The position numbers were made by a program, and so were the translations under genes. 36,676 nucleotides of DNA from Campylobacteraceae bacterium. GTDB lineage: Bacteria > Campylobacterota > Campylobacteria > Campylobacterales > Sulfurovaceae. Where the stretch lies: NCBI GenBank assembly GCA_027023145.1, contig JALVWV010000196.1, forward strand, positions 1 through 36,676, in the 5' to 3' direction. The notes below the pieces were generated by a model, which ran no database searches, was not told the origin of the DNA, and worked only from the letters and a program-made list of their open reading frames with translations. Shown here piece by piece: positions 5,288 to 34,655 of this stretch (position 1 is the first letter of the stretch; every line of letters starts with the position of its first letter).

Positions 5288-5372
5288 CGTAGTCTCCTTT
5301 TTTCGGGTTTGGTATCAAACCTTTTTCCATACTATACTCTCCCATTGTGACGCGAGAGTGACGTTTGGAAAA

Positions 5373-5407
5373 AGTGAGAAGTGAGAGGTGAGAAGTGAGA
5401 AGTGAAA
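5373..5407 (+). repeat. tandem heptamer array AGTGAGA x5
   Basis: Units read directly: agtgaga agtgaga ggtgaga agtgaga agtgaaa, followed by ttgg. Confidence 0.9.
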
Positions 5408-5420
5408 TTGGATGGTGGGT

Positions 5421-5497
5421 GGGGACGCGACTTCAGTCGCGTAGTTGGTTGATAGTGGATGGTGGATGGCGAGAAGGGGCTGGGACTTCAGTCCCAC
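5421..5497 (+). repeat. two CTTCAG-core hairpin modules (GGGGACGCGACTTCAGTCGCGT and AAGGGGCTGGGACTTCAGTCCCAC)
   Basis: Stems are at 5425-5442 and 5482-5495. The same modules with the same flanks recur at 6991-7012, 26667-26710, 15465-15485, 21044-21066, 30863-30885 and 34268-34290. Confidence 0.9.
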
Positions 5498-5601
5498 ATA
5501 GAGAAGTAGAGATTGAAGTCCTCGAAATATCGCTATGTCACTATCTCCTCAGACGCCCATCCCCATCGGGGATGGTGGGGATGAAGATAGAAGATGAAAG
5601 G

Positions 5602-6831
5602 TCAATCCTTGATACAGCGGACAGGTTTTCCATGAGCACGGTAGCCATTGGTATATGCAGATGCATCTACAGAAGCAATACCTATATATGCTCCTCCAGT
5701 ACCCCCATCCTCATGCAACAACCACATACCACCCCACGTACCCTGACGATAAAGGGCAGCAGTATTTCCAACTCGATAACCTGCCGAAGGCAGCTTCAGG
5801 AAAGAGTTAAAAGCATTGACCCTTCGGTCGTCATCGTTGCCGGGTTTTTGTGTACTGTTTTTGTCAATCTGCGCACTATCGTCGTCAAGCAACTCCGCTT
5901 TCATCTCATCAAGAGTCGCTACCCGGAAGCCGACCGGACAGACAAACGAACCGTCGGTCTTGGACCAGTTGGCGATCCGTTGGCTGCCGTTGGCATCCAA
6001 GCTATCAATTACCCAGTCACGACGAGAACTGTTGTCATCTGTGATAAAGTTGCCGTGTTCCACAAAGGCAATATCGGTTGCCAGCGTAGCGGTAGTGCCG
6101 CTGAGTGGATCCTCGTGCCCGTCGAAGTTGCGACCCCATTGGTAATAATCCCCATAACAGGCCACATCGTTGTACGCCGTGCAGACGCGGGCAGCTCCGA
6201 GGTTGCGATCGAGGAAGATCTTGCCGGTGTAGGGGGACTTGACGGCTCCATACGTGGTGCCGTTGGCGGTGATACTGAATGCCGTCACCGTAACGGTACG
6301 GGTAACACTTGCACTGTTGCCAGCACTATCAGTAGCGGTATAGGTGAGGGTATAGGTTCCCGGTGTATCGGTATCGACATTACCACTGACGGTGACGGTG
6401 ATATTTTCATCCACATCATCCGTGGCCGTCGCTCCCGGATCGGTAAAGGTCTCGAACTGAACAAGACTCATGATTGTATCCCCGGTGAGAGAGACGGTCG
6501 GAGCTGTCGTATCGGCCACAGCGGTGACGGTAACTTTCCGGGTCTTGGTAGCGGTGTTCCCGGCTGCATCGGTGGCGCTATAGGTGAGGGTATAGGTTCC
6601 GACCGTACTCGTATCTACACTGCCGCTCACGCTCACCGTGACATTGCCATCCACATCATCGACGGCCGTGGCACCTGGATCGGTAAAGGTTGCTCCCTGA
6701 GCGACACGCATAGTGGACGCACCGTTGAGGGTGATCACCGGAGCCGTCGTATCGGCTCCACTTCCACATGCCGTGATCAGCACGGCAACCATGGCCACTG
6801 TGAGCCATTGCATCCATTTGATGTTATGCAT
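5602..6831 (-). CDS. lipoprotein with two Ig-like (DUF5011-type) repeats and a C-terminal FISUMP (Fibrobacter succinogenes major paralogous) domain
   Basis: 409-aa ORF. Lipobox LITACGSG. Two ~100-aa repeats (APVITLNG...FTDPGATA.DDVDGN.TV.VSG.VDT...GTYTLTY.ATD.AGN). C-terminus has LDRNLGA...CYGDYYQWGR and CPVGFRVATLDEM. AGGAGG lies 5 nt upstream of the ATG. Confidence 0.8.
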   Translation of the reverse strand: MHNIKWMQWLTVAMVAVLITACGSGADTTAPVITLNGASTMRVAQGATFTDPGATAVDDVDGNVTVSVSGSVDTSTVGTYTLTYSATDAAGNTATKTRKVTVTAVADTTAPTVSLTGDTIMSLVQFETFTDPGATATDDVDENITVTVSGNVDTDTPGTYTLTYTATDSAGNSASVTRTVTVTAFSITANGTTYGAVKSPYTGKIFLDRNLGAARVCTAYNDVACYGDYYQWGRNFDGHEDPLSGTTATLATDIAFVEHGNFITDDNSSRRDWVIDSLDANGSQRIANWSKTDGSFVCPVGFRVATLDEMKAELLDDDSAQIDKNSTQKPGNDDDRRVNAFNSFLKLPSAGYRVGNTAALYRQGTWGGMWLLHEDGGTGGAYIGIASVDASAYTNGYRAHGKPVRCIKD

Positions 6832-6986
6832 GATAGCCTCCTTTTTGTTTCAGATACTGATATGATACCATATCTTTATGGCAAAAAAATGTCAAATAGA
6901 GAAAAAGGTGAAAAGTGTGCGAAGAAAATTACTCGACAACCATTTTGTGGTAATTTTTGATTGGCAATTTTTAATGGATCATTGGT

Positions 6987-7012
6987 AAAAGGGGACGCGA
7001 CTTCAGTCGCGT
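6987..7012. repeat. GGGGACGCGACTTCAGTCGCGT hairpin abutting the trpB stop; possible terminator
   Basis: 8-bp stem with TTCA loop at 6995-7012. The trpB stop is at 7013-7015. In the trpB direction, CCCC separates the stem from TTTT, so terminator function is uncertain. Confidence 0.45.
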
Positions 7013-8233
7013 TTATTCAAAATCGAGCATCTCCTTCGCCTGGATCATATCCTTGTCCCCCCGGCCGGAGAGGTTGATGAGGATGGTTTTACCGGAGAGG
7101 GCTTCGTGGGGCATTTTTTTGAGGTATGCCACGGCGTGGGAGCTCTCGAAGGCGGGGATGATTCCCTCGCGTTGGCTGAGCCAGACAAACGCATCGAGGG
7201 CTTCGGTGTCGGTGATGTGATCATACGTGACGATGCGCTCGTCTTTGAGGTAGGCGTGTTCCGGGCCGATGCCGGGGTAGTCGAGTCCGGCACTGATGGA
7301 GTGGGCTTCGAGGATCTGGCCGTCGTCGTCCTGGAGGAGATAACTCATCTGGCCGTGCAGCACGCCCGGTGCTCCTTTGGCGAGGCTTGCACCGTGTTTG
7401 GAATCCAGCCCGAGGCCGCCTGCTTCGATCCCGATGCACTCGACACTCTCGTCTTCGAGGAAGTGGTTGAAGATTCCGATGGCGTTGCTTCCACCGCCGA
7501 TGCAGGCAATCACTGTGTCCGGGAGGGTACCGGCGGCTTCCTGGATCTGGGCGCGGGCTTCCCAGCCGATGATCGACTGGATGTCGCGGATCATCATCGG
7601 GTAGGGGTGAGGGCCGGCGACGGTGCCGATGACGTAGAAGGTATCCCGCGCATGGGTGACCCAGTGGCGAATCGCATCGTTCATGGCGTCCTTGAGGGTA
7701 CGCGATCCCGACTCGACAGCATGGACCTTGGCTCCGAGGAGCTTCATCCGAAAGACATTGAGTTCTTGACGGGCGACGTCTTTGGCACCCATGAAGATCT
7801 CACACTCCAGCCCGAAGAGGGCTGCGACGGTGGCCGTGGCGACCCCGTGCTGCCCCGCACCGGTCTCGGCGATGATCTTTTTCTTGCCCAGACGCTTGGC
7901 GAGGATCGCCTGAGCGACGGTGTGGTTGATCTTGTGTGCTCCGGTGTGGTTGAGGTCTTCGCGCTTGAGGTAGATGCGGGCATCGAGTTCGTCGGAGAGG
8001 TTCTCAGCATAGTAGAGAGGGCTGGGGCGGCCGACGTAATGCTGATAATAATCATGCACCTGCCCCCAGAACTCCGGATCGAAGCGGACTGCTTCGTAGT
8101 CGGCTTTGAGCTGCTCGAGGACAGGCATGAGGGTCTCGGGGACGTAGCGACCGCCGTAGGTGCCAAAATGCCCGAGATCATCAGGATCGTAGGGGGAGGG
8201 TTTGGGGATATAGTATGTGTCGGTTGTGTTCAT
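7013..8233 (-). CDS. trpB: tryptophan synthase beta chain
   Basis: 406-aa ORF with [11 protein letters not shown], the PLP-lysine context [21 protein letters not shown] and GGGSNAIG. Confidence 0.95.
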
Positions 8234-8268
8234 GGTGCGGCCTGTTTTTTGTTGGGGATTATAACAAA

Positions 8269-8289
8269 AAATTAGAAATTAGAAATGAA
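8269..8289 (+). repeat. tandem heptamers AAATTAG x2 plus AAATGAA
   Basis: Read directly in the trpB/recN divergent intergenic region. Confidence 0.7.
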
Positions 8290-8349
8290 TGTACCGGACA
8301 TTAAGGATAATTTCTATACGTTATCGCATACGTTATACAGGAAAAAGAT

Positions 8350-11103: not shown

Positions 11104-11224
11104 AATCAATGCCTTATTGGATTTGTATTTTGTAAATTATACTATTATAATAGTTAAAATTATGCTATCTTGGCAATATTTTTAGAGATTTTGTGGATTT
11201 TCTGTTTATGTATGTTTTTTCCCT

Positions 11225-11250
11225 CGTTCCGCATCTCCTGATGCGGAATG
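11225..11250 (-). repeat. AGGA-loop hairpin module (minus strand: GGTATG-CATTCCGCATC-AGGA-GATGCGGAACG-AG)
   Basis: 11-bp stem including one G-T pair, with a 4-nt loop. The flanks match copies at 16041-16074 and 26755-26788. It sits at the junction of the AT-rich ATPase gene and higA. Confidence 0.85.
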
Positions 11251-11319
11251 CATACCAAACTGCTGACAACCCAAAACCTCCTGGAGATACGAAAACACGA
11301 AGCAAGGAATCCTGCCGTT

Positions 11320-11622: not shown

Positions 11623-11639
11623 GGTCTCTCCTTCTACTT

Positions 11640-11921: not shown

Positions 11922-11923
11922 AT

Positions 11924-11944
11924 AACACTATAACATATAGTGTT
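11924..11944. promoter_or_regulatory. perfect 9-bp inverted repeat AACACTATA-ACA-TATAGTGTT overlapping the putative higB -10; candidate HigBA operator
   Basis: Read directly, 3 nt upstream of the higB ATG. Type II TA operons are commonly autoregulated through palindromic operators. Confidence 0.5.
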
Positions 11945-11955: not shown

Positions 11956-11959
11956 GAGG

Positions 11960-11990: not shown

Positions 11991-12030
11991 AGCGCAACAA
12001 AAATGACAACCATCACACAAGGAGCTCTCC

Positions 12031-14805: not shown

Positions 14806-15393
14806 ATGTCCCAAAATACTACGATAGAAAAGACCCGCGAAACCCGCGAAACCCAAATTGCCGCCCGCCTCAATCTTTATGGAAGTGGGCACTCTACTAT
14901 CGATACCGGTGTAGGGTTTTTCGACCACATGCTCGAAGCGTTTGCCAAACACGCCTGGATCGATCTGGAAGTCACCTGCAAAGGGGATCTCCATGTCGAT
15001 GCCCACCACACGGTGGAAGATGTGGGGATCGTCCTTGGGCAGATGCTCGGTGAAGCGGTCTACCCGGTCAAAAACATCGAACGCTACGGCAACGGCATCG
15101 TCGTGATGGACGAAGCGGCCGTCCAGTGCGACCTCGATTTGAGCAATCGAGGTTATCTCGTATTTGAGATGCCTTTGGGGGGCAGTGTAGGGGCGTTTGA
15201 CGTCGAACTCGTCGAAGAGTTTTTTCGCGCGGTGAGTGCCAACATGCCCCTGACTTTGCACATCACTACCCTGCGGGGTCGCAACAAACACCACATCATT
15301 GAAGCAGCGTTTAAGGCCTTTGCTGTCGCCTTCCGCCGGGCGGTGACGCCCAATGAGCGGGCGGGGGTGCCGAGTACGAAGGGAGTGCTTTGA
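14806..15393 (+). CDS. hisB: imidazoleglycerol-phosphate dehydratase
   Basis: 195-aa ORF with TGVGFFDHMLE, DLHVDAHHTVEDVGI, GRNKHHIIEAAFKA. Confidence 0.95.
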   Translation: MSQNTTIEKTRETRETQIAARLNLYGSGHSTIDTGVGFFDHMLEAFAKHAWIDLEVTCKGDLHVDAHHTVEDVGIVLGQMLGEAVYPVKNIERYGNGIVVMDEAAVQCDLDLSNRGYLVFEMPLGGSVGAFDVELVEEFFRAVSANMPLTLHITTLRGRNKHHIIEAAFKAFAVAFRRAVTPNERAGVPSTKGVL

Positions 15394-15428
15394 GAATTAG
15401 GAATTAGGAATGAGGAATTAGGAATGTT
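15394..15428 (+). repeat. tandem heptamer array GAATTAG x5, starting at the first base after the hisB stop
   Basis: gaattag gaattag gaatgag gaattag gaatgtt, then ggtatgcg. Confidence 0.9.
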
Positions 15429-15433
15429 GGTAT

Positions 15434-15453
15434 GCGTTGCTTTGCAACGCTTT
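15434..15453 (+). terminator. intrinsic terminator-like hairpin GCGTTGC-TTT-GCAACGC plus TTT (repeat module)
   Basis: 7-bp GC-rich stem, 3-nt loop and T-run, downstream of hisB. The same module occurs at six other sites. Confidence 0.6.
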
Positions 15454-15556
15454 CAATTAAATAGGGGGTGGGACTTCAGTCCCACAAACATTGTTCGCGA
15501 TGTATTGTGCAGTGTGCGCCATTGTATATTGTTGCAAACCCCATACAGGAGAACTC

Positions 15557-15874: not shown

Positions 15875-15968
15875 GCTGTCCTTATTTCCATCGTCCTGAG
15901 ACCGTGAAAGAACGTACACTTTTTAGGAGCAGAGGCTTTAGCCCCGTTAAAATAGTCCCATTTTTCTC

Positions 15969-16072
15969 GTTCCCACCGTCCCGTGGGAATGTATGTGCGT
16001 TGATCACAAGTTATGGCATGTTTGCTCCATTTTATACTCTCGTATGCGTTCCCACGCAGGAGCGTGGGAACG
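15969..16072 (+). repeat. pair of GTTCCCAC...GTGGGAA hairpins (15969-15990 with loop CGTCCC; 16047-16072 with 11-bp stem and loop AGGA)
   Basis: Read directly. The second copy has the TCGTATG 5-prime flank and AG 3-prime flank shared with 26755-26788 and (minus strand) 11223-11256. Confidence 0.85.
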
Positions 16073-16119
16073 AGTGTTAACAACTTTTTGGATATAATCG
16101 CTCAAAAAAAAGGTCATAT

Positions 16120-20130: not shown

Positions 20131-21007
<877 letters not shown>

Positions 21008-21014
21008 TTGGTAT

Positions 21015-21035
21015 GCATTGCTTCGCAATGTTTTT
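21015..21035 (+). terminator. terminator-like hairpin CATTGC-TTC-GCAATG plus TTTTT (variant of the GCGTTGC module)
   Basis: Downstream of fabI, in the same position within the cassette as at the other loci. Confidence 0.55.
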
Positions 21036-21089
21036 ATATGAAAAGGGGTTGGGACTTCAGTCCCATAAACATCGCTTGCGATGTATCGT

Positions 21090-21111
21090 GTAGGGTGCGC
21101 AATTGCGCACC
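21090..21111 (+). repeat. GTAG-headed palindrome GTAGGGTGCGCAATTGCGCACC (REP-like)
   Basis: Perfect 18-bp palindrome GGTGCGCAATTGCGCACC preceded by GTAG. Confidence 0.9.
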
Positions 21112-21127
21112 TTCCAACGGTATTTCT

Positions 21128-21205
21128 CCGGAAGCGGAGACTTCAGTCCCGCCAAAAGGTCAAACAACACAGCAACCTTAGGGTGAGGCTGAAGCCTTCA
21201 CTTCC
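21128..21205 (-). mobile_element. 78-bp TIR-bounded MITE/REPIN-like element, copy 1 (inverted relative to copies 2 and 3)
   Basis: The reverse complement aligns along its full length with 26806-26884 and 32810-32887. The arms GGAAGTGAAGGCTTCAGCCTCACC and CCGGAAGCGGAGACTTCAGTCCCGCC are inverted repeats of each other. Confidence 0.7.
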
Positions 21206-21228
21206 AGATAAATCGCGTTGCGATTTTT

Positions 21229-21249
21229 GTGTGCTGTTGCACACCCTAC
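21229..21249 (-). repeat. GTAG-headed palindrome on the minus strand (GTAGGGTGTGCAACAGCACAC)
   Basis: Reverse complement of gtgtgctgttgcacaccctac. The adjacent AATCGCGTTGCGATT hairpin (21211-21225) matches the module order seen at 30909-30947 and 34501-34539. Confidence 0.85.
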
Positions 21250-21263
21250 ACGGGTATGACTCA

Positions 21264-21438
21264 ATGAATAATGAAAAATGAAAAATGAATAATGAATAAT
21301 GAAAGATGAAAGATGAAAGATGAAAGATGAAAGATGAAAAATGAAAGATGAAAAATGAAAGATGAAAAATGAAAGATGAAAAATGAAAAATGAATAATGA
21401 ATAATGAAAGATGAAAGATGAAAGATGAAAAATGAATG
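21264..21438 (+). repeat. 25-unit tandem heptamer array ATGAAAR/ATGAATA; the last unit contains the TrmH-family start codon
   Basis: I counted 24 complete units over 21264-21431 (168 bp): ata aaa aaa ata ata aag x5 aaa aag aaa aag aaa aag aaa aaa ata ata aag x3 aaa. Unit 25 is ATGAATG at 21432. Confidence 0.95.
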
Positions 21439-22197: not shown

Positions 22198-22620
22198 GTG
22201 GTTTACCTCTCGCTCTTTATCACTGCCTTCATCTCGGCAACCCTTTGGCCGATGGGGAGTGAAGCCGTCCTCCTCTACGATATCACGCAGGGACACCCCA
22301 TCCTAGCTCTCTGGGCAGTAGCTACCGCCGGCAACACCCTCGGAGCGACACTCAACTACTGGATGGGTCTGGGTGGTGAAGCGATGCTCGAAGAGCGCGG
22401 CCGCATCCGCCCTGGAGCCCTCCGCCCTATCCACCGCTATTTCGAGCGTTATGGGGCGGCGACCCTGCTGCTGAGCTGGCTGCCGATTGTCGGGGATCTC
22501 TTTACCTTCGTAGCCGGGATTGTGCGGTATCCTTTTTGGCGGTTTGTCGTGTGGGTGCTAGTGGCCAAAGGAGGACGGTATGCGGTGTTGGTGTGGGGGG
22601 TGTTGCGGGTTGCGGGTTAG
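22198..22620 (+). CDS. YqaA/DedA-related (SNARE-associated domain) membrane protein
   Basis: 140-aa ORF with a GTG start, containing FISATLWPMGSEAVL and ATAGNTLGATLNYWMG. The last 7 codons lie in a heptamer array. Confidence 0.7.
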   Translation: MVYLSLFITAFISATLWPMGSEAVLLYDITQGHPILALWAVATAGNTLGATLNYWMGLGGEAMLEERGRIRPGALRPIHRYFERYGAATLLLSWLPIVGDLFTFVAGIVRYPFWRFVVWVLVAKGGRYAVLVWGVLRVAG

Positions 22621-22641
22621 GGGTTACGTGTTACGTTTTGG
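22600..22641 (+). repeat. heptamer array GTGTTGC GGGTTGC GGGTTAG GGGTTAC GTGTTAC GTTTTGG spanning the stop of the yqaA-like gene
   Basis: Read directly. The stop codon TAG (22618-22620) lies inside unit 3. Confidence 0.9.
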
Positions 22642-22675
22642 TATGGGGTTTAAACATCGCAACGTGATGTATCAC

Positions 22676-22794
22676 GTAGGGTGTTGTGCCCTCACAACAC
22701 CGAAATGGCCATACGGTGCAATGGGTTCCATGATTGTATCGGAATGTTTTTTGATTGTCGTATCAATTGGTGTTGTCGGGGGACAACACCCTAT
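22676..22794. repeat. inverted doublet of GTAG-headed palindromes (GTAGGGTGTTGTGCCCTCACAACACC at 22676-22701 on the plus strand; ATAGGGTGTTGTCCCCCGACAACACC at 22769-22794 on the minus strand)
   Basis: 9-bp stems GGTGTTGTG/CACAACACC and GGTGTTGTC/GACAACACC, arranged head to head with a 67-bp spacer. Confidence 0.85.
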
Positions 22795-22811
22795 GGGAAA
22801 TGTGATATGAA

Positions 22812-24201: not shown

Positions 24202-24220
24202 TCGGGTGTCCTTTTTGCGT

Positions 24221-24248
24221 GTTAAGTGCTACGTGTTACGTGTTGCGT
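24221..24248 (+). repeat. heptamer array GTTAAGT GCTACGT GTTACGT GTTGCGT followed by TTTTGG
   Basis: Read directly, upstream of the DUF302 lipoprotein gene. Confidence 0.8.
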
Positions 24249-24251
24249 TTT

Positions 24252-24299
24252 GGAGTTGGGACTTCAAGCCTTATTAAACGGGACTAAAGTCCCTACTCC
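24252..24299. repeat. extended stem-loop GGAGTTGGGACT...AGTCCCTACTCC enclosing a GGGACTAAAGTCCC hairpin
   Basis: 12-bp outer stem with one mismatch. It is related to GGAGTAGGGACTTCAGTCCC at 31514-31533. Confidence 0.7.
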
Positions 24300-24305: not shown

Positions 24306-24326
24306 AAAAGCGTTGCTGCGCAACGC
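24306..24326 (-). terminator. intrinsic terminator of ychF (minus strand GCGTTGC-GCA-GCAACGC plus TTTTATT)
   Basis: 7-bp stem at 24310-24326 with an A-run at 24306-24309 on the plus strand. It is the same module as at the plus-strand loci. Confidence 0.65.
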
Positions 24327-24332
24327 AACCAA

Positions 24333-24367
24333 AACTCCTAATTCCTAATTCCTCACTCCTAATTCAC
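24333..24367 (-). repeat. heptamer array on the minus strand (GTGAATT AGGAGTG AGGAATT AGGAATT AGGAGTT), starting 2 nt after the ychF stop
   Basis: Reverse complement of aactcct aattcct aattcct cactcct aattcac. Confidence 0.9.
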
Positions 24368-24369
24368 AT

Positions 24370-26666: not shown

Positions 26667-26670
26667 GGGG

Positions 26671-26707
26671 ACGCGACTTCAGTCGCGTTTTGTGGGACTG
26701 AAGTCCC
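26671..26707 (+). terminator. back-to-back hairpins ACGCGACTTCAGTCGCGT-TTTT and GGGACTGAAGTCCC(AGCCCC)-TTTCTT; likely terminator of the small lipoprotein gene
   Basis: The first stem starts 5 nt after TAA 26664-26666 and is followed directly by TTTT. The second is the inverted copy of the GGGGCTGGGACTTCAGTCCCAC module. Confidence 0.6.
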
Positions 26708-26760
26708 AGCCCCTTTCTTCCGACAGGGAACGCACATATTACGTTTGATGCAGTCGTATG

Positions 26761-26805: not shown

Positions 26806-26884
26806 GGAAGTGAAGGCTTCAGCCTCACCTTGAGGTTGCTATGTTATTTGACCTTTTGGGCGGGACTGAAGTCTCCGCTTCCGG
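26806..26884 (+). mobile_element. 78-bp TIR-bounded MITE/REPIN-like element, copy 2
   Basis: Aligns with 32810-32887 and with the reverse complement of 21128-21205. Confidence 0.7.
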
Positions 26885-26898
26885 GAAAATCGGTGGAA

Positions 26899-26918
26899 GG
26901 TGCGCAATTGCACACTAC
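26899..26918 (-). repeat. GTAG-headed palindrome on the minus strand (GTAGTGTGCAATTGCGCACC); its GTAG contains the der stop codon
   Basis: The minus strand reads GAA GAG TAG TGT GCA ATT GCG CAC C. The der stop is at 26915-26917. Confidence 0.85.
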
Positions 26919-30297: not shown

Positions 30298-30774
30298 ATG
30301 AAAACCATCGAAGGAAATTTGAGCGTCGATCGCTCCAAAAAAGTTGCCATCATCAGTGCACGATTCAACCACTTTATCACCGACCGTCTCGTCGAGGGAG
30401 CCAAAGATGCCTACGCCCGCCATGGTGGGCAAGCAGAGGATCTCGATTTGATCCTCGTTCCCGGAGCGTTTGAGATCCCTTTTGCTCTGGACAAGGCGTT
30501 TGCATCCGGTAAGTACGATGCCGTCTGTTGTCTTGGAGCCGTGATCCGGGGGGCGACACCGCATTTTGATTATGTCTCAGCCGAAGCGACCAAAGGGGTA
30601 GCCAATGTCACCCTCAAACATGGCAAGCCTGCTTCGTTTGGTGTCCTCACAGTCGACAGCATTGAGCAAGCCATCGAGCGTGCCGGGACAAAAGCGGGCA
30701 ACAAAGGAGCTGAAGCGATGACGGGATTGATCGAGATGATCAATCTGTATGAGGAATTAGGAGTGAGGAATTAG
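30298..30774 (+). CDS. ribH: 6,7-dimethyl-8-ribityllumazine synthase
   Basis: 158-aa ORF with [43 protein letters not shown]. The last 7 codons and the stop lie in an AGGAATT heptamer array. Confidence 0.95.
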
Positions 30775-30779
30775 GAATT
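30752..30779 (+). repeat. heptamer array AGGAATT AGGAGTG AGGAATT AGGAATT spanning the ribH 3-prime end and stop
   Basis: Read directly. TAG 30772-30774 straddles the junction of units 3 and 4. The array is followed by TTGG. Confidence 0.9.
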
Positions 30780-30786
30780 TTGGTAT

Positions 30787-30807
30787 GCGTTGCTTTGCAA
30801 CGCTTTT
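30787..30807 (+). terminator. intrinsic terminator-like hairpin GCGTTGC-TTT-GCAACGC plus TTTT after ribH
   Basis: Identical to the hisB copy. Confidence 0.65.
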
Positions 30808-30810
30808 ATT

Positions 30811-30832
30811 GTAGGGTTGGCTTCAGCCGACC
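30811..30832 (+). repeat. GTAG-headed hairpin GTAGGGTTGGCTTCAGCCGACC
   Basis: 7-bp stem including one G-T pair, with a TTCA loop. A second copy lies at 34411-34432. Confidence 0.85.
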
Positions 30833-30908
30833 AAAAATGGCACGAACGCATAGAGATCAAACAGGGGCTGGGACTTCAGTCCCACAAACATCGTTTGCGA
30901 TGTATCGT

Positions 30909-31001
30909 GTAGGGTGGGCAACAGCACACCAAAATCACATCGTGATTGTCAAAATGTTCCTGTAATTCAATCGTTGGAAGGTGCGCAATTGCGCACCCTA
31001 C
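30909..31001. repeat. inverted doublet of GTAG-headed palindromes (30909-30930 on the plus strand; 30980-31001 on the minus strand) with an internal AATCACATCGTGATT hairpin
   Basis: GTAGGGTGGGCAACAGCACACC and, on the minus strand, GTAGGGTGCGCAATTGCGCACC, with a 49-bp spacer. Confidence 0.85.
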
Positions 31002-31040
31002 GCGGGGAACACATTTAAAACCATACACAAAAGGACACCC

Positions 31041-31433
31041 ATGGCCACACGCCGTCAAGCTCGTACCGCTGTCATCGGTCTGCTCTATGCCTACGATCTG
31101 GGCAATGCTAACATCGCACAATTCAGCGACGACATCCTCGAAGAGGGGAAGATCCGGAACAAACAGCGGGAATTTTCCCAAGGGTTGTTCAGGGGTACCA
31201 TCGAGCATCTTGATGAGATTGATGCTGAAATAACTAAACACCTCAAAGAGTGGGATATGGATGGCATCGGCAAGGTCGAAAAGGCGATCCTGCGTCTGGG
31301 CACGTATGAGATCCTCATCGCCGGTACCGATCGCCCCATCATCATCAACGAAGCAGTCGAGCTGGCCAAAGAGCTTGCCGACGACCGGTCGCCGCAGTTT
31401 ATCAATGGGGTTTTGGATGCGGTTGGGAAATGA
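31041..31433 (+). CDS. nusB: transcription antitermination factor NusB
   Basis: The ORF track starts at 30981 inside repeat DNA; I prefer ATG 31041 (MATRRQARTAVIGLLYAYD), preceded by AAAGGA. Contains ILRLGTYEI and INEAVELAK. Confidence 0.9.
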   Translation: MATRRQARTAVIGLLYAYDLGNANIAQFSDDILEEGKIRNKQREFSQGLFRGTIEHLDEIDAEITKHLKEWDMDGIGKVEKAILRLGTYEILIAGTDRPIIINEAVELAKELADDRSPQFINGVLDAVGK

Positions 31434-31461
31434 GTGGGTAGTGGGTAGTGTGTAGTGGGTA
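31434..31461 (+). repeat. heptamer array GTGGGTA x4, starting at the first base after the nusB stop
   Basis: gtgggta gtgggta gtgtgta gtgggta. Confidence 0.9.
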
Positions 31462-31516
31462 GAAATTTATGGTGTTTGGATTGTTGTGGATCTGGTCGCA
31501 GTTGTACTCATCAGGA

Positions 31517-31553
31517 GTAGGGACTTCAGTCCCGTATGTAGGACTGAAGTCCT
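31517..31553 (+). repeat. twin GTAG-headed hairpins GTAGGGACTTCAGTCCC and GTAGGACTGAAGTCCT
   Basis: Read directly. The cores are in opposite orientation (CTTCAG then CTGAAG). Confidence 0.85.
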
Positions 31554-31607
31554 GCCCCCAAAGTTGAAATATCCGCCGATTTAATAAAACAAAGAGAGAA
31601 AATAACT

Positions 31608-32702
31608 ATGAAAAAAACCGTTAAAAAGAGCTCTACCCGCTACCCGCTACCCGCTACCCGCTTGTCTATAAGCGAAGCGATAGACTTAATCGAACACGCC
31701 GACCTCAAAGAACTCGGACGTATGGCATATGCTCGCAAGCAGGAGCTTCACCCCAAAGGGGTTACCACTTTCGTTGTCGATCGCAACATCAACTACACCA
31801 ATATCTGTTGGGTGGACTGCAAATTCTGTGCGTTTTATACCCATGAGAAAAAAGAAGATGCTTATGTACTGAGCTTTGAGGAGATCGACGCCAAGATCGA
31901 TGAGCTCGTGGCCATCGGTGGGACGCAGATTCTCTTCCAGGGAGGGGTGCATCCCAAGCTGGAGATCGAGTGGTACGAAGATCTGGTGGAGCATATTCAT
32001 CAAAAGTATCCTGAAGTGACCATCCACGGTTTCTCAGCCATAGAGATCGACTATATTGCCCGCCGTTCTCACTTGAGCATTCGTGAAGTGCTCGAACGGC
32101 TCCAAGCCAAAGGACTCAGCTCGATCCCGGGAGCCGGAGCCGAGATCCTTAGCGACCGGGTACGCGATATCATCGCTCCGAACAAACTTGACACGGCTAC
32201 CTGGATCGATGTCCACCGCCAAGCCCACACAATCGGGATGAAATCGACCGCGACGATGATGTACGGCACCGTAGAGACGACCCGGGAGATCGTGGAGCAC
32301 TTCGATCACATCCGCCGCTTACAGGATGAGACGGGCGGGTTTCGGGCGTTTATCATGTGGAGTTACCAAAGCGACAACACCGAACTCAAACGCCAACTCC
32401 CCACTCTGAGCAAAACAAGTTCCAACTATTATCTTCGGTTATTGGCTGTGGCACGTCTCTTCCTTGATAATGTCCCCAATATCCAGAGCTCTTGGGTCAC
32501 TCAGGGAAGCTACATCGGTCAGATGGCACTCCGCTGGGGAGCCAATGACCTCGGCTCGACGATGATGGAAGAAAACGTCGTCTCCGCCGCCGGAGCCCAC
32601 AACCAAATGAATCAGGAAGAGATGATCCGCCTTATTGCTGACATCGGAGAGAAACCGGCTAAGCGTAATACGGCGTATGAGATTTTGGAGAGATATTATT
32701 GA
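31608..32702 (+). CDS. radical SAM enzyme of the futalosine (mqn) menaquinone pathway, MqnC/MqnE (CofH-like) family; C versus E cannot be told apart by eye
   Basis: 364-aa ORF. Cluster motif NICWVDCKFCAF, GGTQILFQGG, TATMMYG, GGFRAFIMWSYQ. Codons 9-18 are encoded by a CTACCCG heptamer array. Confidence 0.85.
   Translation: MKKTVKKSSTRYPLPATRLSISEAIDLIEHADLKELGRMAYARKQELHPKGVTTFVVDRNINYTNICWVDCKFCAFYTHEKKEDAYVLSFEEIDAKIDELVAIGGTQILFQGGVHPKLEIEWYEDLVEHIHQKYPEVTIHGFSAIEIDYIARRSHLSIREVLERLQAKGLSSIPGAGAEILSDRVRDIIAPNKLDTATWIDVHRQAHTIGMKSTATMMYGTVETTREIVEHFDHIRRLQDETGGFRAFIMWSYQSDNTELKRQLPTLSKTSSNYYLRLLAVARLFLDNVPNIQSSWVTQGSYIGQMALRWGANDLGSTMMEENVVSAAGAHNQMNQEEMIRLIADIGEKPAKRNTAYEILERYY
31633..31660 (+). 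repeat. heptamer array CTACCCG x4 inside the 5-prime end of the mqn-family CDS; it is the reverse complement of the GGGTAG-type array at 31434-31461
   Basis: ctacccg x4 read directly; it encodes S-T-R-Y-P-L-P-A-T-R. Confidence 0.9.
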
Positions 32703-32730
32703 AGTAGGAAGTAAGAAGTAGGAAGTAGGA
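32703..32730 (+). repeat. heptamer array AGTAGGA AGTAAGA AGTAGGA AGTAGGA, starting at the first base after the mqn-family stop
   Basis: Read directly; followed by ATTTTGG. Confidence 0.9.
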
Positions 32731-32740
32731 ATTTTGGTAT

Positions 32741-32761
32741 GCGTTGCTTGGCAACGCTTTT
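32741..32761 (+). terminator. intrinsic terminator-like hairpin GCGTTGC-TTG-GCAACGC plus TTTT
   Basis: Same module as at the other loci, with a different loop. Confidence 0.65.
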
Positions 32762-32786
32762 GTAGGTGTTGTCCTCTGACAACACC
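32762..32786 (+). repeat. GTAG-headed palindrome GTAGGTGTTGTCCTCTGACAACACC
   Basis: 9-bp stem GGTGTTGTC/GACAACACC with loop CTCT, followed by AAAATCAC as in other copies. Confidence 0.85.
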
Positions 32787-32809
32787 AAAATCACAAATGT
32801 ATTTTATTT

Positions 32810-32887
32810 GGAAGTGGAGGCTTCAGCCCCACCTTGAGGTCACCATGTTATTTGAGTGTTGGGCGGGACTGAAGTCTCCGCTTCCGG
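32810..32887 (+). mobile_element. 78-bp TIR-bounded MITE/REPIN-like element, copy 3
   Basis: Left arm GGAAGTGGAGGCTTCAGCCCCACC. The reverse complement of the right arm is GGAAGCGGAGACTTCAGTCCCGCC (20 of 24 identical). Confidence 0.7.
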
Positions 32888-32962
32888 AAAAGCTCCATCA
32901 AAAGGTGCGCAATTGAGCATTCTGCGGGGAAACAAATATAAAAACCACAAAAAGGAACAACC

Positions 32963-34204
32963 ATGCCAGCCACCCAAACCACCTTTCACCTCCACGGGGT
33001 TGAAATCCCCGTGATTTTTGAAGAGGAGCGGTATCTTCCGATTGTTTCATTGCAGTTGGTGTTTGAAGACAGCGGAGCACTCAGTGATCTCAATCCGGGT
33101 CAAGCGCGGATGACAGCGCGGCTACTGGGAGAAGGATCACGCAAGGCGGGTTCAGCGGCGTTTGCCGAGCGTCTGGAGTCCCGGGCGGTGAGCCTGAGTG
33201 CTCACGCAGGGCGGGAGACGATGGTGATCGAGCTGAGTGCGCTCAAGGAGAACTTCGGGTATGGAGCCGGGATGCTGGCCGAACTGCTGGCAGATCCCAA
33301 CTATTCTCCTGAAGCATTTGAAACCGTTCAGGCAAGCACGCTCGGTAAACTCACCCAGAAACAGAGTGACTACGATTATCTCGCGTCTGTCGGGCTCTCG
33401 CGCCTGCTCTTTGAAGGTACCGGGCTGTCTGAACCGATTGACGGGACGCTTGAGAGTGTGCGAATGATGGATCCGGAGGATTTGGTCTACCAATTCCGCA
33501 CCCATGTGGGCTTGAGCAACCTTACCATTGTCCTCGGAGGGGATCTGAGCTGGGAAGAGGCGCAAACGTATCTTCAGCAGGCGCTCACACCGCTCAAGCA
33601 AACATCCGTCGTCCCCATCGGTCATTTTACGGCGACCGATACCCCCCGGATCGATCGGGCGTTTGTCCAGACAGAACAGGCGTATATCTATTTTGGAGCG
33701 CCGCTGGATGTGGCGTACGATGGCGCAGAGACCCATCTGGCCAAAATCGCCGCGTTTGTGCTGGGCAGCAGCGGTTTTGGAAGCCGCCTCATGGAAGAAG
33801 TCCGGGTCAAGCGGGGACTGGCGTATTCTGCTTATGGGCATTTTGCCCTCAAACGCTCGGTGAGTTACTTCACCGGACATGTCCAGACCAAACTTGAGAG
33901 CGAAGAGGAAGCCATCGAAGTGATTGGCGAAGTGGTCTCCGAGTTTGTCAAGGACGGCATCACCGCCAAAGAGCTCGAAGGAGCCAAAGCCTTCCTCCTT
34001 GGGAGTGAGCCTTTGCGCACCGAGACCCTCTCTCAGCGTCTGGGGCGGGCGTTTGATGAGTATTATGCGCACAAACCTCTGGGTGAGAGTGCCCGTCAGC
34101 TGGAGCAGATCGAAGGGGTGAGCCTCGAGGAGATCAACGCGTTTATCCGGGAGCATGAGGAGATTGAGAAGCTTAGTTTTTATGTGGTAACAAGGGAGAA
34201 TTAG
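32963..34204 (+). CDS. M16 (pitrilysin) family peptidase-like protein lacking the HxxEH zinc motif (probably a non-catalytic subunit)
   Basis: 413-aa ORF with the two-domain M16 layout (R/Y pair region VRVKRGLAYSAYG). The position where HxxEH is expected reads ARMTARLLGEG. Confidence 0.75.
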   Translation: MPATQTTFHLHGVEIPVIFEEERYLPIVSLQLVFEDSGALSDLNPGQARMTARLLGEGSRKAGSAAFAERLESRAVSLSAHAGRETMVIELSALKENFGYGAGMLAELLADPNYSPEAFETVQASTLGKLTQKQSDYDYLASVGLSRLLFEGTGLSEPIDGTLESVRMMDPEDLVYQFRTHVGLSNLTIVLGGDLSWEEAQTYLQQALTPLKQTSVVPIGHFTATDTPRIDRAFVQTEQAYIYFGAPLDVAYDGAETHLAKIAAFVLGSSGFGSRLMEEVRVKRGLAYSAYGHFALKRSVSYFTGHVQTKLESEEEAIEVIGEVVSEFVKDGITAKELEGAKAFLLGSEPLRTETLSQRLGRAFDEYYAHKPLGESARQLEQIEGVSLEEINAFIREHEEIEKLSFYVVTREN

Positions 34205-34226
34205 GAGTTAGGAATTAGGAGTGAGG
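34199..34226 (+). repeat. heptamer array AATTAGG AGTTAGG AATTAGG AGTGAGG spanning the last codon and stop of the M16-like gene
   Basis: Read directly; followed by AATTTTGG. Confidence 0.9.
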
Positions 34227-34237
34227 AATTTTGGTGG

Positions 34238-34258
34238 GCGTTGCTCTGCAACGCTTTT
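34238..34258 (+). terminator. intrinsic terminator-like hairpin GCGTTGC-TCT-GCAACGC plus TTTT
   Basis: Same module; a duplicate lies at 34386-34406 with loop GTA. Confidence 0.65.
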
Positions 34259-34315
34259 ATTTGAAAAAGGGGCTGGGACTTTAGTCCCACAAACATCGCT
34301 TGCGATGTATCGCGT

Positions 34316-34408
34316 AGATTGAGAAGTTGAGTTTTTATGTGGTAACGCGGGAGAATTAGAGGTTAGAAATTAGAAGTTTTGGTGGGCGTTGCGTAGCAAC
34401 GCTTTTAT
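34316..34408 (+). repeat. non-coding duplicate of the M16-like gene tail plus heptamer array plus terminator hairpin (copy of 34161-34260, one heptamer shorter)
   Basis: agattgagaagttgagtttttatgtggtaacgcgggagaattaga... aligns with agattgagaagcttagtttttatgtggtaacaagggagaattagga... The offset is 155 bp. Confidence 0.85.
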
Positions 34409-34410
34409 CT

Positions 34411-34432
34411 GTAGGGTTGGCTTTAGCCGACC
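34411..34432 (+). repeat. GTAG-headed hairpin GTAGGGTTGGCTTTAGCCGACC
   Basis: Copy of 30811-30832 with one loop change. Confidence 0.85.
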
Positions 34433-34500
34433 ATATGGGGGATTTGATACGCTGCGCGTTTGGTTGGACTGAAGTCCAAGCCCCATGGAGAAGGGCTCGC

Positions 34501-34592
34501 GTAGGGTGTGCAATTGCACACCAAAATCGCAACGCGATTGTCAGAATGTCCCGGTAGTGTAACCATTGGAAGGTGCGCAATTGCGCACCTAC
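34501..34592. repeat. inverted doublet of GTAG-headed palindromes (34501-34522 on the plus strand; 34572-34592 on the minus strand) with an internal AATCGCAACGCGATT hairpin
   Basis: GTAGGGTGTGCAATTGCACACC and, on the minus strand, GTAGGTGCGCAATTGCGCACC, with a 49-bp spacer. The architecture matches 30909-31001. Confidence 0.85.
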
Positions 34593-34655
34593 GTGATAAA
34601 ACGTAAAAAAATATGACAATTTGACATATTTTCCGATCCTGTGCCTATCCTTAGC

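Follow-up and report, generated by a model that had tools for sequence, protein, structure and literature searches.

Multi-family intergenic mosaics between core genes are known from the BIMEs of Escherichia coli and the NIMEs of Neisseria (dRS3, RS and Correia elements), in which modules recur in preferred orders and alternating orientations and clusters grow when they are duplicated in tandem together with adjoining DNA. In cyanobacteria, STRR heptamer arrays with inserted small dispersed repeats (SDRs) were reportedly described by Elhai in 2008 (cited in PMC5861425). A single heptamer unit, TAACTGA, forms direct arrays with stop triplets at gene boundaries, mostly just upstream of start codons, with a patchy distribution over marine Beggiatoaceae, cyanobacteria and Bacteroidetes (MacGregor 2015, PMC4679880). 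GTAG-REPs, which are associated with RAYT transposases (Di Nocera 2013, PMC3733652; PMC4690160; Nunvar 2010, PMC2817692), are extragenic palindromes near gene 3' ends, with a 5' GTAG whose TAG may be a stop codon; their 5' arm is rich in G, the stem is 6-10 bp long and the 2-nt loop is of the TY type. Both GTAG and CGTC REPs have been reported in Sulfurovum. The REPINs of Pseudomonas consist of two inverted REPs, tags outermost, around a conserved spacer (Bertels and Rainey 2011, PMC3116915).

Here we analyzed a 36,676-nt stretch (the window) of a Nitratifractor-like chromosome from a vent bacterium of the Campylobacterota (Sulfurovaceae), whose Der protein shows 75-77% identity to proteins from Nitratifractor and Sulfurovum. 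Its longer intergenic regions share the above properties of BIMEs and NIMEs, but differ in their repeat sequences, in the host phylum and in the heptamer arrays that bracket the mosaics. We consider it likely that they constitute a mosaic of the BIME/NIME kind made up of non-autonomous REP-type elements, probably mobilized by a RAYT-type enzyme encoded elsewhere.

Extent and composition of the intergenic mosaics

Searches of the window ORFs against Pfam confirmed hisB, fabI, ribH, nusB, der, ychF and a RecG-like helicase, the core genes between which the initial annotation had placed the mosaics. Of the 15 intergenic regions that measure 100 nt or more, 12 are made up of modules of one common set, far over chance (module-free: 8234-8349, 11110-11319 and 25474-25697), in line with the earlier claim that almost every longer intergenic region is filled, and the twelve regions total 2,773 nt (7.6% of the window), within the 2.5-3 kb previously estimated by eye. 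Compared with shuffled sequences, we found 24 strand-hits of GGGACTTCAGTCCC at up to two mismatches (0.28 expected), 6 of GGTGCGCAATTGCGCACC at up to three mismatches (0.02 expected) and 6 of TTTTGG plus GCGTTGC-NNN-GCAACGC plus TTTT at up to three mismatches (0.00 expected), with a seventh copy of the TTTTGG/GCGTTGC/T-run arrangement on the minus strand at 24306-24333. Repeat finding within the window connected the regions through families D5, D8, D10-D17 and I1-I23 (Table 1).

Some details of the initial annotation required revision. Among its at least 12 regions built from one set, 6987-7012 is a lone hairpin and 15875-16119 has just two modules in common with the others, the GGAGCAGAGGCTTTAGCCCCGT and GTTCCCACGC-AGGA-GCGTGGGAAC hairpins, while its region list is extended by a further inverted array at 31633-31662. 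The usual module order that it proposed is often seen but is not universal, and the short heptamer arrays that it described are joined by one of 25 units (21263-21436). Its statement that the set belongs to no described family does not hold for the GTAG-REP part (PMC3733652, PMC4690160); the searchable literature yielded no description of the TTCA-loop hairpins, of the common terminator or of the framing by heptamers.

Table 1. Mosaic features in the window
Positions	Strand	Feature	Repeat families or remarks
5372..5498	+	C-free heptamer arrays (AAGTGAG, TGGTGGA) and two GGGG-tagged TTCA hairpins (5421-5443, 5476-5498)	
6991..7013	+	Lone hairpin GGGGACGCGACTTCAGTCGCGT adjoining stop codon of PALP gene (minus strand)	D11
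15391..15453	+	3' cassette after hisB: TGA stop, (GAATTAG)x4.6, TGTTGG, GCGTTGC-TTT-GCAACGC, T-run	
15464..15530	+	GGGG-tagged TTCA hairpin, ACATTGTTCGCGATGT palindrome, decayed REP	D8
15926..16075	+	GGAGCAGAGGCTTTAGCCCCGT hairpin and two GTTCCCAC-type hairpins	
20973..21035	+	3' cassette after fabI: heptamers, TTTTGG, GCATTGC-TTC-GCAATGT, T-run	
21045..21086	+	TTCA hairpin and ACATCGCTTGCGATGT palindrome	D8
21087..21252	.	Inverted GTAG-REP dimer GTAGGGTGCGCAATTGCGCACC ... GTGTGCTGTTGCACACCCTAC	I1, I2, I4, I5, I10
21263..21436	+	Array of 25 AATGAAA heptamers (family D2) that runs into start codon of SpoU-type methyltransferase gene	
22602..22635	+	GTTACGG/GTTACGT heptamers across VTT stop, then TTTTGG	
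22672..22798	.	Inverted dimer of Sulfurovum NBC37-1-class REPs, GTAGGGTGTTGTGCCCTCACAACACC ... GGTGTTGTCGGGGGACAACACCCTAT	I22
24218..24299	.	GTTACGT heptamers and TTTTGG adjoining DUF302 start, decayed hairpin, GGAGTAGGGACTTTAGTCCCGT (24277-24299, minus)	
24306..24369	-	3' cassette after ychF (families I3, I6-I8): heptamers 24336-24365, TTTTGG, GCGTTGC-GCA-GCAACGC, T-run	
26667..26713	.	TTCA hairpin dimer, tags outside, GGGGACGCGAC... / ...GTCCCAGCCCC	
26806..26918	.	GGAAG-tagged TTCA hairpin dimer (26806-26882), then REP body (families I2, I9, I17)	
30750..30807	+	3' cassette after ribH: heptamers substitute for last codons and provide stop; then TTTTGGTATGCGTTGCTTTGCAACGCTTTT	
30811..30905	+	GTAGGGTTGGCTTCAGCCGACC (GTAG tag, TTCA-type loop), spacer, GGGGCTGGGACTTCAGTCCCAC, ACATCGTTTGCGATGT palindrome	
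30906..31004	.	99-nt inverted GTAG-REP dimer, REPIN-like, conserved spacer	D13, I5, I10
31433..31662	.	Putative insertion between nusB and mqnC	(GGGTAGT)n, two inverted TTCA hairpins (31514-31559), new RBS, ATG at 31608
32701..32786	+	3' cassette after CofH/MqnC-like gene: GAAGTAG heptamers, TTTTGG, terminator, then GTAGGTGTTGTCCTCTGACAACACC	
32810..32921	.	GGAAG-tagged TTCA hairpin dimer (32810-32885) and decayed REP GGTGCGCAATTGAGCA (families I1, D14)	
34161..34410	+	3' cassette after M16 peptidase gene, two copies	Tandem duplication, 155-nt offset; D5, D19
34269-34291		TTCA hairpin in duplicated M16 cassette region	
34411..34593	.	GTAGGGTTGGCTTTAGCCGACC, inverted TTCA hairpin (34462-34484), 96-nt inverted GTAG-REP dimer (34498-34593) (families D13, I4, I12)	
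34613..34666	+	Promoter-like repeated module ATGACAATTTGACATATTTTC ... TATAAT, upstream of RecG-like gene	

GTAG-tagged palindromes and TTCA-loop hairpins

Several families of palindromes in the mosaics are directly preceded by GTAG, have 2-nt loops and fall into recurring classes; most form inverted, REPIN-like dimers of ~96-127 nt, and single copies also occur. Modules 5, 8 and 11 of the initial annotation bear this tag, which defines GTAG-REPs, and its items 8-11, listed there as separate modules, jointly form one inverted REP dimer of ~96-99 nt. The REP class at 22676 matches 23 of 26 bases of GTAGGGTGTTGTACCCCTACAACACC, a RAYT-associated REP of Sulfurovum NBC37-1 (PMC4690160). At der (minus strand), the tag consists of the last G of a GAG codon and the stop codon TAG, and the conserved GAGTAG end of der directly precedes the REP body both in the window and in the related genome L249. 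The window REPs share the listed properties of GTAG-REPs, including the use of the TAG as a stop codon, but several classes coexist here, the DNA sampled from the window, relatives and metagenome loci yielded no RAYT gene, and the REPs lie within a fixed heptamer/terminator framework that is not in PMC3733652, PMC4690160 or PMC2817692.

Like REPINs, the inverted dimers comprise a repeated unit (~96-99 nt) that folds as a single long hairpin (z = -3.5 to -4.6), although their spacer is longer and has its own small palindrome, AATCGCAACGCGATT, and in one copy (21087..21252) it holds a nested GGAAG-tagged TTCA hairpin dimer (21130-21205). Elements of ~96-166 nt with terminal inverted repeats, together with an IS110-family transposase gene beside recG in the syntenic region of a relative (L250), might also suggest MITEs derived from DDE/DEDD insertion sequences and moved through their TIRs by such a transposase. 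This origin is very unlikely, given that each terminal repeat is a tagged palindrome with a 2-nt loop that is also found singly, as REPs are, that target-site duplications are not visible at junctions comparable with empty sites, and that no insertion sequence with matching ends was seen in ~220 kb.

The TTCA-loop hairpins are a sister superfamily of the GTAG-tagged palindromes, with a GGGG, GGAG or GGAAG tag and a 6-bp covarying stem, usually arranged in inverted pairs. Those with a perfect inner 5-bp stem number 78 in 190 kb, against 1.7 expected. They have a common 5' tag, yet at least six stem types, and both sides of the stem change in 6 of 7 pairs (42 such cells versus 12.9 in shuffles, a value attained by 0 of 500 shuffles). 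The majority are tagged GGGG, not GTAG, and they may rely on another enzyme than the GTAG-REPs, or on none. The dimer at 26667..26713 folds into two hairpins closed by a GGGG/CCCC stem, and the GTTCCCAC-type module is common to the window, L147 and L156. Covarying stems, some of which contain G-T pairs, and the 301 nt at 30745-31045 spanning the ribH|nusB mosaic, which fold as RNA better than shuffles (z = -3.9), would also fit hairpin chains that are structured small RNA genes or cis-regulatory motifs of a paralogous RNA family. We find this highly improbable: no Rfam family scored at the gathering threshold, the stems are equally perfect in DNA and RNA terms, the hairpins occur in both orientations relative to transcription as well as in inverted dimers, and the module content of one junction varies among close relatives.

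Terminator cassettes and heptamer arrays at gene ends

The terminator cassette consists of TTTTGG, a GCGTTGC-NNN-GCAACGC hairpin and a T-run, and its direction is always that of the upstream gene; all seven GCGTTGC hairpins score as intrinsic terminators in this orientation. The stem after fabI departs from GCGTTGC/GCAACGC on both arms yet still pairs. Heptamer arrays edge the mosaics, are unstructured and have one strand without C; they adjoin or cover the stop codons of hisB, fabI, ychF, ribH, nusB and the CofH/MqnC-like and M16 peptidase genes, and overlap that of the VTT gene. In a hand tally against the gene maps of the window and its relatives, the C-free strand was the sense strand in 13 of 13 compositionally polar arrays abutting a stop codon. 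The tandem duplication after the M16 peptidase gene includes the last 44 nt of that gene.

The arrangement resembles that of the STRR/SDR system, with very small, putatively mobile hairpins among intergenic tandem heptamers (the GGGG-tagged hairpin at 5421-5443 is embedded within an array), but in a Campylobacterota host in which HIP1 is absent, and with locus-specific units and a C-free sense strand. Like the TAACTGA repeats (PMC4679880), the arrays are direct heptamers with stop triplets at gene boundaries of a sulfur-oxidizing bacterium and are patchily distributed, whereas here many different units occur, most of them bordering stop codons, and they are linked with hairpin elements. The RAYT model offers no explanation for the origin of these arrays.

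Conservation and strict co-orientation of the cassette are no less compatible with a host function under selection than with selfish spread. The cassette is conserved among widely differing genomes, a 29-nt stretch of it being identical between the window and N. salsuginis; TTTTGGTATGCGTTGCTTTGCAACGCTTT is the same in both, despite Der being only 76% identical, and even L124, though devoid of the other modules, has a degenerate copy. The mosaics could then primarily be host regulatory cassettes or operon insulators that supply all-frame stops, a terminator, RNA-stabilizing hairpins and sometimes a promoter, spread or homogenized by recombination or gene conversion and kept by selection, with no dedicated transposase. 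The orientation of terminators and polar arrays and the promoter-like module repeated upstream of different genes agree with this, as does the finding that no RAYT or other Y1 transposase was detected in the ~220 kb searched (window, relatives and metagenome loci); none of the window ORFs matches a transposase family, as the initial annotation had noted. We nevertheless regard host cassettes as a rather unlikely primary explanation, since the GTAG tag and inverted-dimer architecture are hallmarks of RAYT-mobilized elements, elements are nested in one another, and 3-nt or overlapping junctions suffice at the same sites in close relatives.

For the REP-type mosaic, we propose that the hairpins probably move as single-stranded DNA via an HUH/Y1 (RAYT-type) transposase encoded elsewhere. 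Their insertion would take place on the 3' side of GTAG-like sites where genes end, or within arrays and other elements, and selection would retain only those orientations that spare the translation stop, transcription termination and downstream initiation. The co-orientation of the cassettes with their upstream genes may be a consequence of this selection.

Dispersal and turnover among relatives

The mosaic elements are dispersed and nested in one another, and close relatives vary in whether an orthologous junction has them. Modules, often in the same order, occurred beyond the window in four related MAGs (L122, L123, L249 and L250), in the complete N. salsuginis genome and in 30 unrelated metagenome contigs with GC contents of 0.30 to 0.55 that have an exact 20-mer in common, and matches at non-orthologous loci were obtained for 12 of 20 intergenic regions versus 0 of 20 coding controls. 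Common flanks and order were shared as well: a stop codon, heptamers, TTTTGG, the GCGTTGC hairpin, GGGGACGCGACTTCAGTCGCGT and inverted GGGGCTGGGACTTCAGTCCCAC recur beside unrelated genes. The REP/BIME-like mosaic of the initial annotation is thereby supported, as the modules are neither confined to the window nor reduced to generic terminator hairpins. That a prophage and genomes ranging from 30 to 55% GC have identical hairpins further argues against host cassettes.

A comparison of orthologous junctions, which the initial annotation had suggested, revealed that the ribH|nusB junction spans 267 nt in the window, 203 in L249, 145 in N. salsuginis, 20 in L250 and 3 in L122, and that the two genes overlap in L124; likewise, nusB and mqnC overlap by 17 nt in L122 and L124, versus 174 nt between them in the window. 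Occupancy does not track Der identity, with ribH|nusB empty in L122 (97%) and occupied in L249 (94%). Orthologous junctions differ among relatives, apparently through gain or loss. The window is a metagenomic contig and many related contigs terminate at repeats, as would be expected if contigs had been misjoined through repeats. Such an assembly artefact is, however, exceedingly improbable: gene order and kinds of mosaic recur both in independent assemblies (L122, L123, L249) and in CP002452, a finished genome from a cultured strain, and the flanking genes are intact and syntenic.

Mosaic elements have given flanking genes stop codons, one start codon and a new N-terminus. The latter two come from the putative insertion that split the overlapping nusB and mqnC genes, in which the N-terminus is encoded by an inverted (CTACCCG)x4 array (31633-31662) within the start region annotated for the CofH/MqnC-like gene. 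The mosaics are unusually modular, change fast and have rewritten the termini of adjacent genes. A hairpin pair that lies in frame within an hsdM-like gene of L141 and L149, which also speaks against host cassettes, and the CTACCCG array resemble the in-frame coding insertions of Rickettsia palindromic elements (RPE) and intragenic REPs; window-type copies differ in being mostly extragenic and unrelated in sequence.

GTAG-tagged REPs and TTCA-loop hairpins

Proteobacteria are well-known hosts of REP, REPIN and BIME elements. The modules described in the initial annotation were found again on reading the regions, at counts far above those of shuffled sequence: 24 strand-hits compared with 0.28 expected for GGGACTTCAGTCCC (≤2 mismatches), and 6 compared with 0.02 for GGTGCGCAATTGCGCACC (≤3 mismatches) in the window. 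The 12 module-bearing regions total 2,773 nt; among the 15 intergenic gaps that reach 100 nt, 12 contain modules. These regions are linked by direct and inverted families from the repeat search of the window (D5, D8, D10-D17 and I1-I23).

In the four REP classes (see the table of features), GTAG directly precedes a 6-10 bp stem with a 2-nt loop, giving short imperfect palindromes in the 20-40 nt range of REP stem-loops. A hairpin follows GTAG at 4.3% of sites, compared with 1.5-1.7% for three control tetramers. One copy, GTAGGGTGTTGTGCCCTCACAACACC, agrees with GTAGGGTGTTGTACCCCTACAACACC at 23 of 26 bases, the tag and 8-bp stem being identical; the latter is the REP of Sulfurovum sp. NBC37-1, identified beside a RAYT gene (PMC4690160, Table II), and this genome is listed with GTAG and CGTC REPs (Di Nocera et al., PMC3733652). 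The GTAG-REPs therefore add a new member to an already described family, effectively the Sulfurovum one. A literal sequence search of the literature returned this Sulfurovum REP only, and the GGGG-tagged TTCA superfamily, the common terminator and the polar heptamer framing described below were not found in searchable literature.

Most REP copies are paired as inverted dimers whose tags lie on the outside. Two of these (30906-31004 and 34498-34593) share 84% identity from end to end, spacer included (family D13), as expected of REPINs, and copies of the unit also occur in two related MAGs (L122 and L249). Because the REPs stand as inverted dimers with a conserved spacer, the eighth to eleventh modules in the order given by the initial annotation are a single REPIN-like unit. 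As single strands the dimers fold into long hairpins (z = -3.5 to -4.6; -3.5 to -5.3 across the tested REP and hairpin elements). In the contigs and loci sampled, GTAG-REPs are scattered across 30 metagenome contigs and also occur in several relatives. A classical, DDE-derived MITE is unlikely, since no target-site duplication was seen at junctions comparable with empty sites or around the nested element at 21130-21205.

When the TTCA hairpins are oriented on their loop, GGGG, GGAG or GGAAG stands as a common 5' tag, and the 6-bp stem exists in six or more versions, each fully compensated; hairpins with a perfect inner stem number 78 in 190 kb, compared with 1.7 expected. Among 40 distinct hairpin sequences, picked regardless of pairing at the outer six positions, two-sided changes were detected at 6 of 7 stem pairs (42 cells, a count that none of 500 shuffles attained; 12.9 expected from shuffling). 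Slid controls collapse, and the outermost pair is mostly unpaired. The GTAG tag is absent from most TTCA hairpins, which have GGGG instead, with the exception of the GTAG-containing GGAGTAGGGAC subfamily; in addition, GTAGGGTTGGCTTCAGCCGACC combines a GTAG tag with a TTCA-type loop in one element. Given this subfamily and the hybrid, GTAG-REPs and TTCA hairpins look related. These data document a second hairpin superfamily (GGGG tag, TTCA loop, covarying stems), common to genomes of 30-55% GC and a prophage.

An inverted TTCA hairpin pair also lies in frame inside an hsdM-like methyltransferase gene on two low-GC contigs (L141 and L149, GC 0.30-0.36), where it adds about 20 residues (GAGTSVPQ...KVPAP) and no stop, resembling the Rickettsia palindromic elements, which insert without a stop codon. 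A myovirus-like prophage in a low-GC isolate genome (L177/L228, IMGVR_UViG_2654587899_000001; 29.4 kb, GC ~0.38), encoding tail sheath, baseplate, head protease and major head protein, contains at least eight GGGG-tagged TTCA hairpins, including exact GGGGCTGGGACTTCAGTCCCAC in tandem or inverted clusters between head genes, and is a possible vehicle for their horizontal spread. Apart from this prophage, the degenerate hairpin pattern in viral contigs gave mostly single chance matches.

Features of the mosaics and of neighbouring sequence (window coordinates unless a locus is named)
Feature	Position	Description
REP class 1		GTAG tag 5' of stem GGTG[CT]GCA-at-TGC[GA]CACC; REP form GTAGGGTG...CACC
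REP class 2		GTAG tag 5' of stem GGTTGGCT-tc-AGCCGACC (also GGTTGGCT..GCCGACC)
REP class 3		GTAG tag 5' of stem GGTGTTGT...ACAACACC; Sulfurovum NBC37-1 class
REP class 4		GTAG tag 5' of stem GGGCAGAyC...
REP compared with Sulfurovum	22676-22701	GTAGGGTGTTGTGCCCTCACAACACC
Inverted REP dimers	30906-31004; 34498-34593; 22672-22798; 21087-21252	Tags outside
Inverted TTCA pair	26667-26713	Two hairpins closed by GGGG/CCCC; z = -5.3
GGAAG-tagged TTCA dimers	21130-21205; 26806-26882; 32810-32885	Inverted pairs
In-frame TTCA pair	L141 ~730-830; L149 ~6985-7080	Inside hsdM-like gene
Smaller pieces		Palindromes ACATCGCTTGCGATGT and AATCGCAACGCGATT; promoter-like ATGACAATTTGACATATTTTC...TATAAT
Promoter-like module	34613-34666	Palindromic core ATGACAATTTGACAT, TATAAT ~30 nt downstream; upstream of RecG-like gene
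Repeat-derived protein start	31608-31662	New ATG and four CTACCCG
Heptamer array before SpoU-type gene	21263-21436	25 units, AATGAAA/GATGAAA
Segmental duplication	34161-34222 / 34316-34377	Tandem, 155-nt offset, 87% identity
IS110-family (DEDD) transposase gene	L250 273-1220	Directly beside RecG-like gene
Low-GC stretch	9901-12030	GC 38-43%
PIN-domain toxin and small upstream ORF	25698-26335	Between ychF and ORF104
Repeat protein	2273-5287 (minus strand)	1004 aa, ~15 tandem 144-nt (48-aa) repeats
Ig-like surface protein	5602-6831	409 aa

Orthologous junctions, dispersal and module order

We compared junctions across the syntenic loci of MAGs and N. salsuginis and observed presence/absence polymorphism between relatives, e.g., 267 nt vs 3 nt at the ribH-nusB junction. 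Junction content varies even between genomes that are both occupied. Occupancy does not track Der identity, and the differences may reflect either gain or loss. The 3-nt or overlapping junctions of near relatives, compared with mosaics of 170-460 nt, point to fast remodelling of a compact vent-bacterium chromosome.

Lengths of three orthologous junctions (nt; negative values are overlaps)
Genome	Der identity	ribH-nusB	nusB-mqnC	mqnC-M16
Window		267	174	260
L122	97%	3	-17	249
L249	94%	203	77	253
L250	89%	20 (heptamers only)	58 (heptamers only)	101
L124	89%	-1	-17	20
N. salsuginis	76%	145	141	143

In the window, the RibH C-terminus EELGVRN derives from heptamers and replaces GEL, its stop codon also coming from the insertion. 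Between nusB and mqnC, (GGGTAGT)n opens the insertion at the stop codon of nusB, and a new RBS, ATG and inverted (CTACCCG)4 close it. This inverted array encodes the predicted CofH/MqnC-like N-terminus MKKTVKKSSTRYPLPATR in place of MLLANNRMI; about 18 first residues of the radical SAM protein thus come from inserted repeats, and the start codon used by the relatives, inside nusB, is lost. The der gene ends with GAGTAG in all seven genomes compared, and in the window and L249 a REP body follows directly, the gene's own stop being the tag. On the sequence of these two cases, the der-stop REPs match what would be expected as the product of insertion 3' of a GTAG target. In a relative with 89% Der identity (L250), an IS110-family transposase gene lies beside the RecG-like gene; in other bacteria, REP sequences are reported targets of IS110/IS1111 elements.

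The exact 20-mer GGCTGGGACTTCAGTCCCAC was present in 30 JGI metagenome contigs with GC of 0.30 to 0.55, 26 of them from one sample, with many matches at contig ends; repeats of this kind fragment metagenome assemblies of this group. Beside unrelated genes, six loci (L134, L140, L145, L147, L152 and L156) share one order, namely stop codon, C-free heptamers, TTTTGG, GCGTTGC hairpin, GGGGACGCGACTTCAGTCGCGT and inverted GGGGCTGGGACTTCAGTCCCAC. This recurrence at independent loci, together with inverted pairs and conserved linkers, is that of BIME/NIME assemblies. Intergenic regions of the window matched non-orthologous loci in 12 of 20 cases and coding controls in 0 of 20, part of the former being built in by selection on GGCTGGGACTTCAGTCCCAC; the regions at 24202, 31434, 32703, 6832, 15875 and 22621 match via other modules. 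Dispersal, recurrent module order and the GTAG-REP match support the REP/BIME-like mosaic proposed in the initial annotation.

The palindrome GGTGCGCAATTGCGCACC, as an exact 18-mer, recurs as a dispersed repeat in many Bradyrhizobium species too (L002-L121), where it belongs to a separate hairpin mosaic (GAATCTCGAGATTC, CCGGAATGAC and others) flanked by, for example, CTAT/ATAG. All genome-contig matches listed were from Bradyrhizobium and carried zero other window modules. Convergence and a common protein-binding site are both possible for the palindrome in the two groups.

Heptamer arrays, terminator cassettes and possible mechanisms

Period 7 accounts for 64 of the 124 short-period Tandem Repeats Finder rows in 190 kb, and in the window eight genes have an array at or across their stop codon. 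Their units vary by locus (GAATTAG, AAGTGAG, GAAGTAG, GGGTAGT, GAATAGT, GTTACGT and others), many include TAGG, GTAG or TGAG, and most arrays are C-free on one strand, which permits TAA, TAG and TGA, with TAA alone on the complement. Hand tallies against gene maps placed the C-free strand on the sense strand in 13 of 13 compositionally polar arrays abutting a real stop codon; start-codon-adjacent arrays are usually inverted (three of four in the window, also tallied by hand). Strand-polar heptamer arrays are tied to gene ends. One hairpin sits embedded inside an array, and the two arrays tested by folding gave no fold. A 25-unit array in the window runs into the ATG of a SpoU-type rRNA methylase gene; the corresponding junction in L124 measures 21 nt. 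Slippage could change the length of this array and alter expression.

The closest parallels to the arrays come from cyanobacteria (the STRR/SDR system) and from Beggiatoaceae (TAACTGA repeats). Membership in STRR/SDR is contradicted by the Campylobacterota host and by the lack of HIP1 (GCGATCGC), with zero copies in the 36.7-kb window; a cyanobacterial origin (STRR/SDR/HIP1), prompted by the heptamers, was likewise ruled out by missing HIP1 and the placement of Der in Sulfurovaceae.

The terminator cassette (consensus TTTTGG-(N3)-GCGTTGC-NNN-GCAACGC-TTTT) occurs six times compared with a shuffled expectation of 0, plus a seventh copy on the minus strand. All seven GCGTTGC hairpins score as predicted intrinsic terminators that share the strand of their upstream gene (fold dG -8 kcal/mol, z = -4.6), and a scan of viral contigs for the cassette gave zero matches. 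The main rival explanation of the mosaics is a host cassette without a transposase. The terminator cassette is strictly co-oriented and deeply conserved, with a 29-nt stretch identical between the window and N. salsuginis and a degenerate copy in L124, which fits a use by the host or, at the least, strong purifying filtering.

The mosaics fit non-autonomous REP/REPIN elements in BIME/NIME-like assemblies because of the tag with a covarying hairpin, inverted dimers, nesting, location at gene 3' ends with TAG donated as stop, in-frame intragenic copies and presence/absence between relatives. All of these traits except nesting and between-relative polymorphism are known for REPs (PMC3733652). By analogy, the elements would move as single-stranded DNA via a RAYT-type HUH enzyme. 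No RAYT was matched by phmmer with seven RAYT/TIRYT seeds (E. coli YafM, sequence per PMC3733652 Additional file 5, and six others) in all ORFs of ~220 kb, a sample that says little given that RAYTs are usually single-copy. Pfam gave zero transposase matches among window ORFs, in agreement with the initial annotation, which had seen none.

We regard as improbable the further proposal that the composite is a portable gene-boundary cassette, more than a pile of REPs, in which heptamer arrays, perhaps HUH-made by repeated copying of a GTAG-containing 7-mer, would be laid down first at gene junctions and then serve as landing pads for hairpins. Arrays alone at two L250 junctions, the hairpin embedded in an array and units with TAGG, GTAG or TGAG may point to arrays coming first and acting as landing pads. 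Heptamer arrays reportedly act as landing pads for hairpins in Nostoc. Period 7 with one C-free strand would stop translation in three frames one way, with TAA alone possible the other way, and the CTACCCG array of the window is open in all three frames. Such an insertion could split even overlapping genes and re-equip the neighbours with stop, terminator, promoter/RBS and start codon, which matches the nusB-mqnC junction. N. salsuginis DSM 16511 (CP002452.1), cultured and fully sequenced, has the same cassettes, and termination, RNA stability and RAYT-dependent mobility are testable there.

Host genome and neighbouring sequence

Der shares 75-77% identity with proteins of Nitratifractor salsuginis, Nitratifractor sp. 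and Sulfurovum, and 89-97% with MAG proteins; the window is a metagenomic contig from a Nitratifractor-like member of Sulfurovaceae with a GC content of 52%. Pfam mapped a response regulator and kinase, large repeat-rich surface proteins, TatD, SLT, RlpA-like, HisB, ABM monooxygenase, GTPases, PBP2, an asparaginase fragment, FabI, SpoU methylase, PanE, YchF, a PIN toxin pair, Der, MscS, RibH, NusB, a CofH/MqnC-type radical SAM enzyme, M16 peptidase and a RecG-like helicase. Across the whole window, zero Rfam families matched at gathering score and no tRNA genes were found.

Sigma-70-like sites were not enriched (15 vs 15.2 expected). The promoter-like module stands before the RecG-like gene and other genes and is shared with L122, L129, L130 and L133, in the last three directly 3' of a TTCA hairpin and an ACATCGC..GCGATGT palindrome. 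The segmental duplication took in the final 44 nt of the M16 peptidase gene along with heptamers and terminator. The low-GC stretch, with an AAA_14/DUF4143 ATPase, a HigB-like toxin and its HTH_3 partner and modules absent inside, is probably a small acquired island. The PIN toxin and its small ORF are missing at that position in L122 (11866-11991), L123 and L124. The 1004-aa repeat protein, with weak beta-propeller and Big_9 matches, adjoins the Ig-like surface protein.
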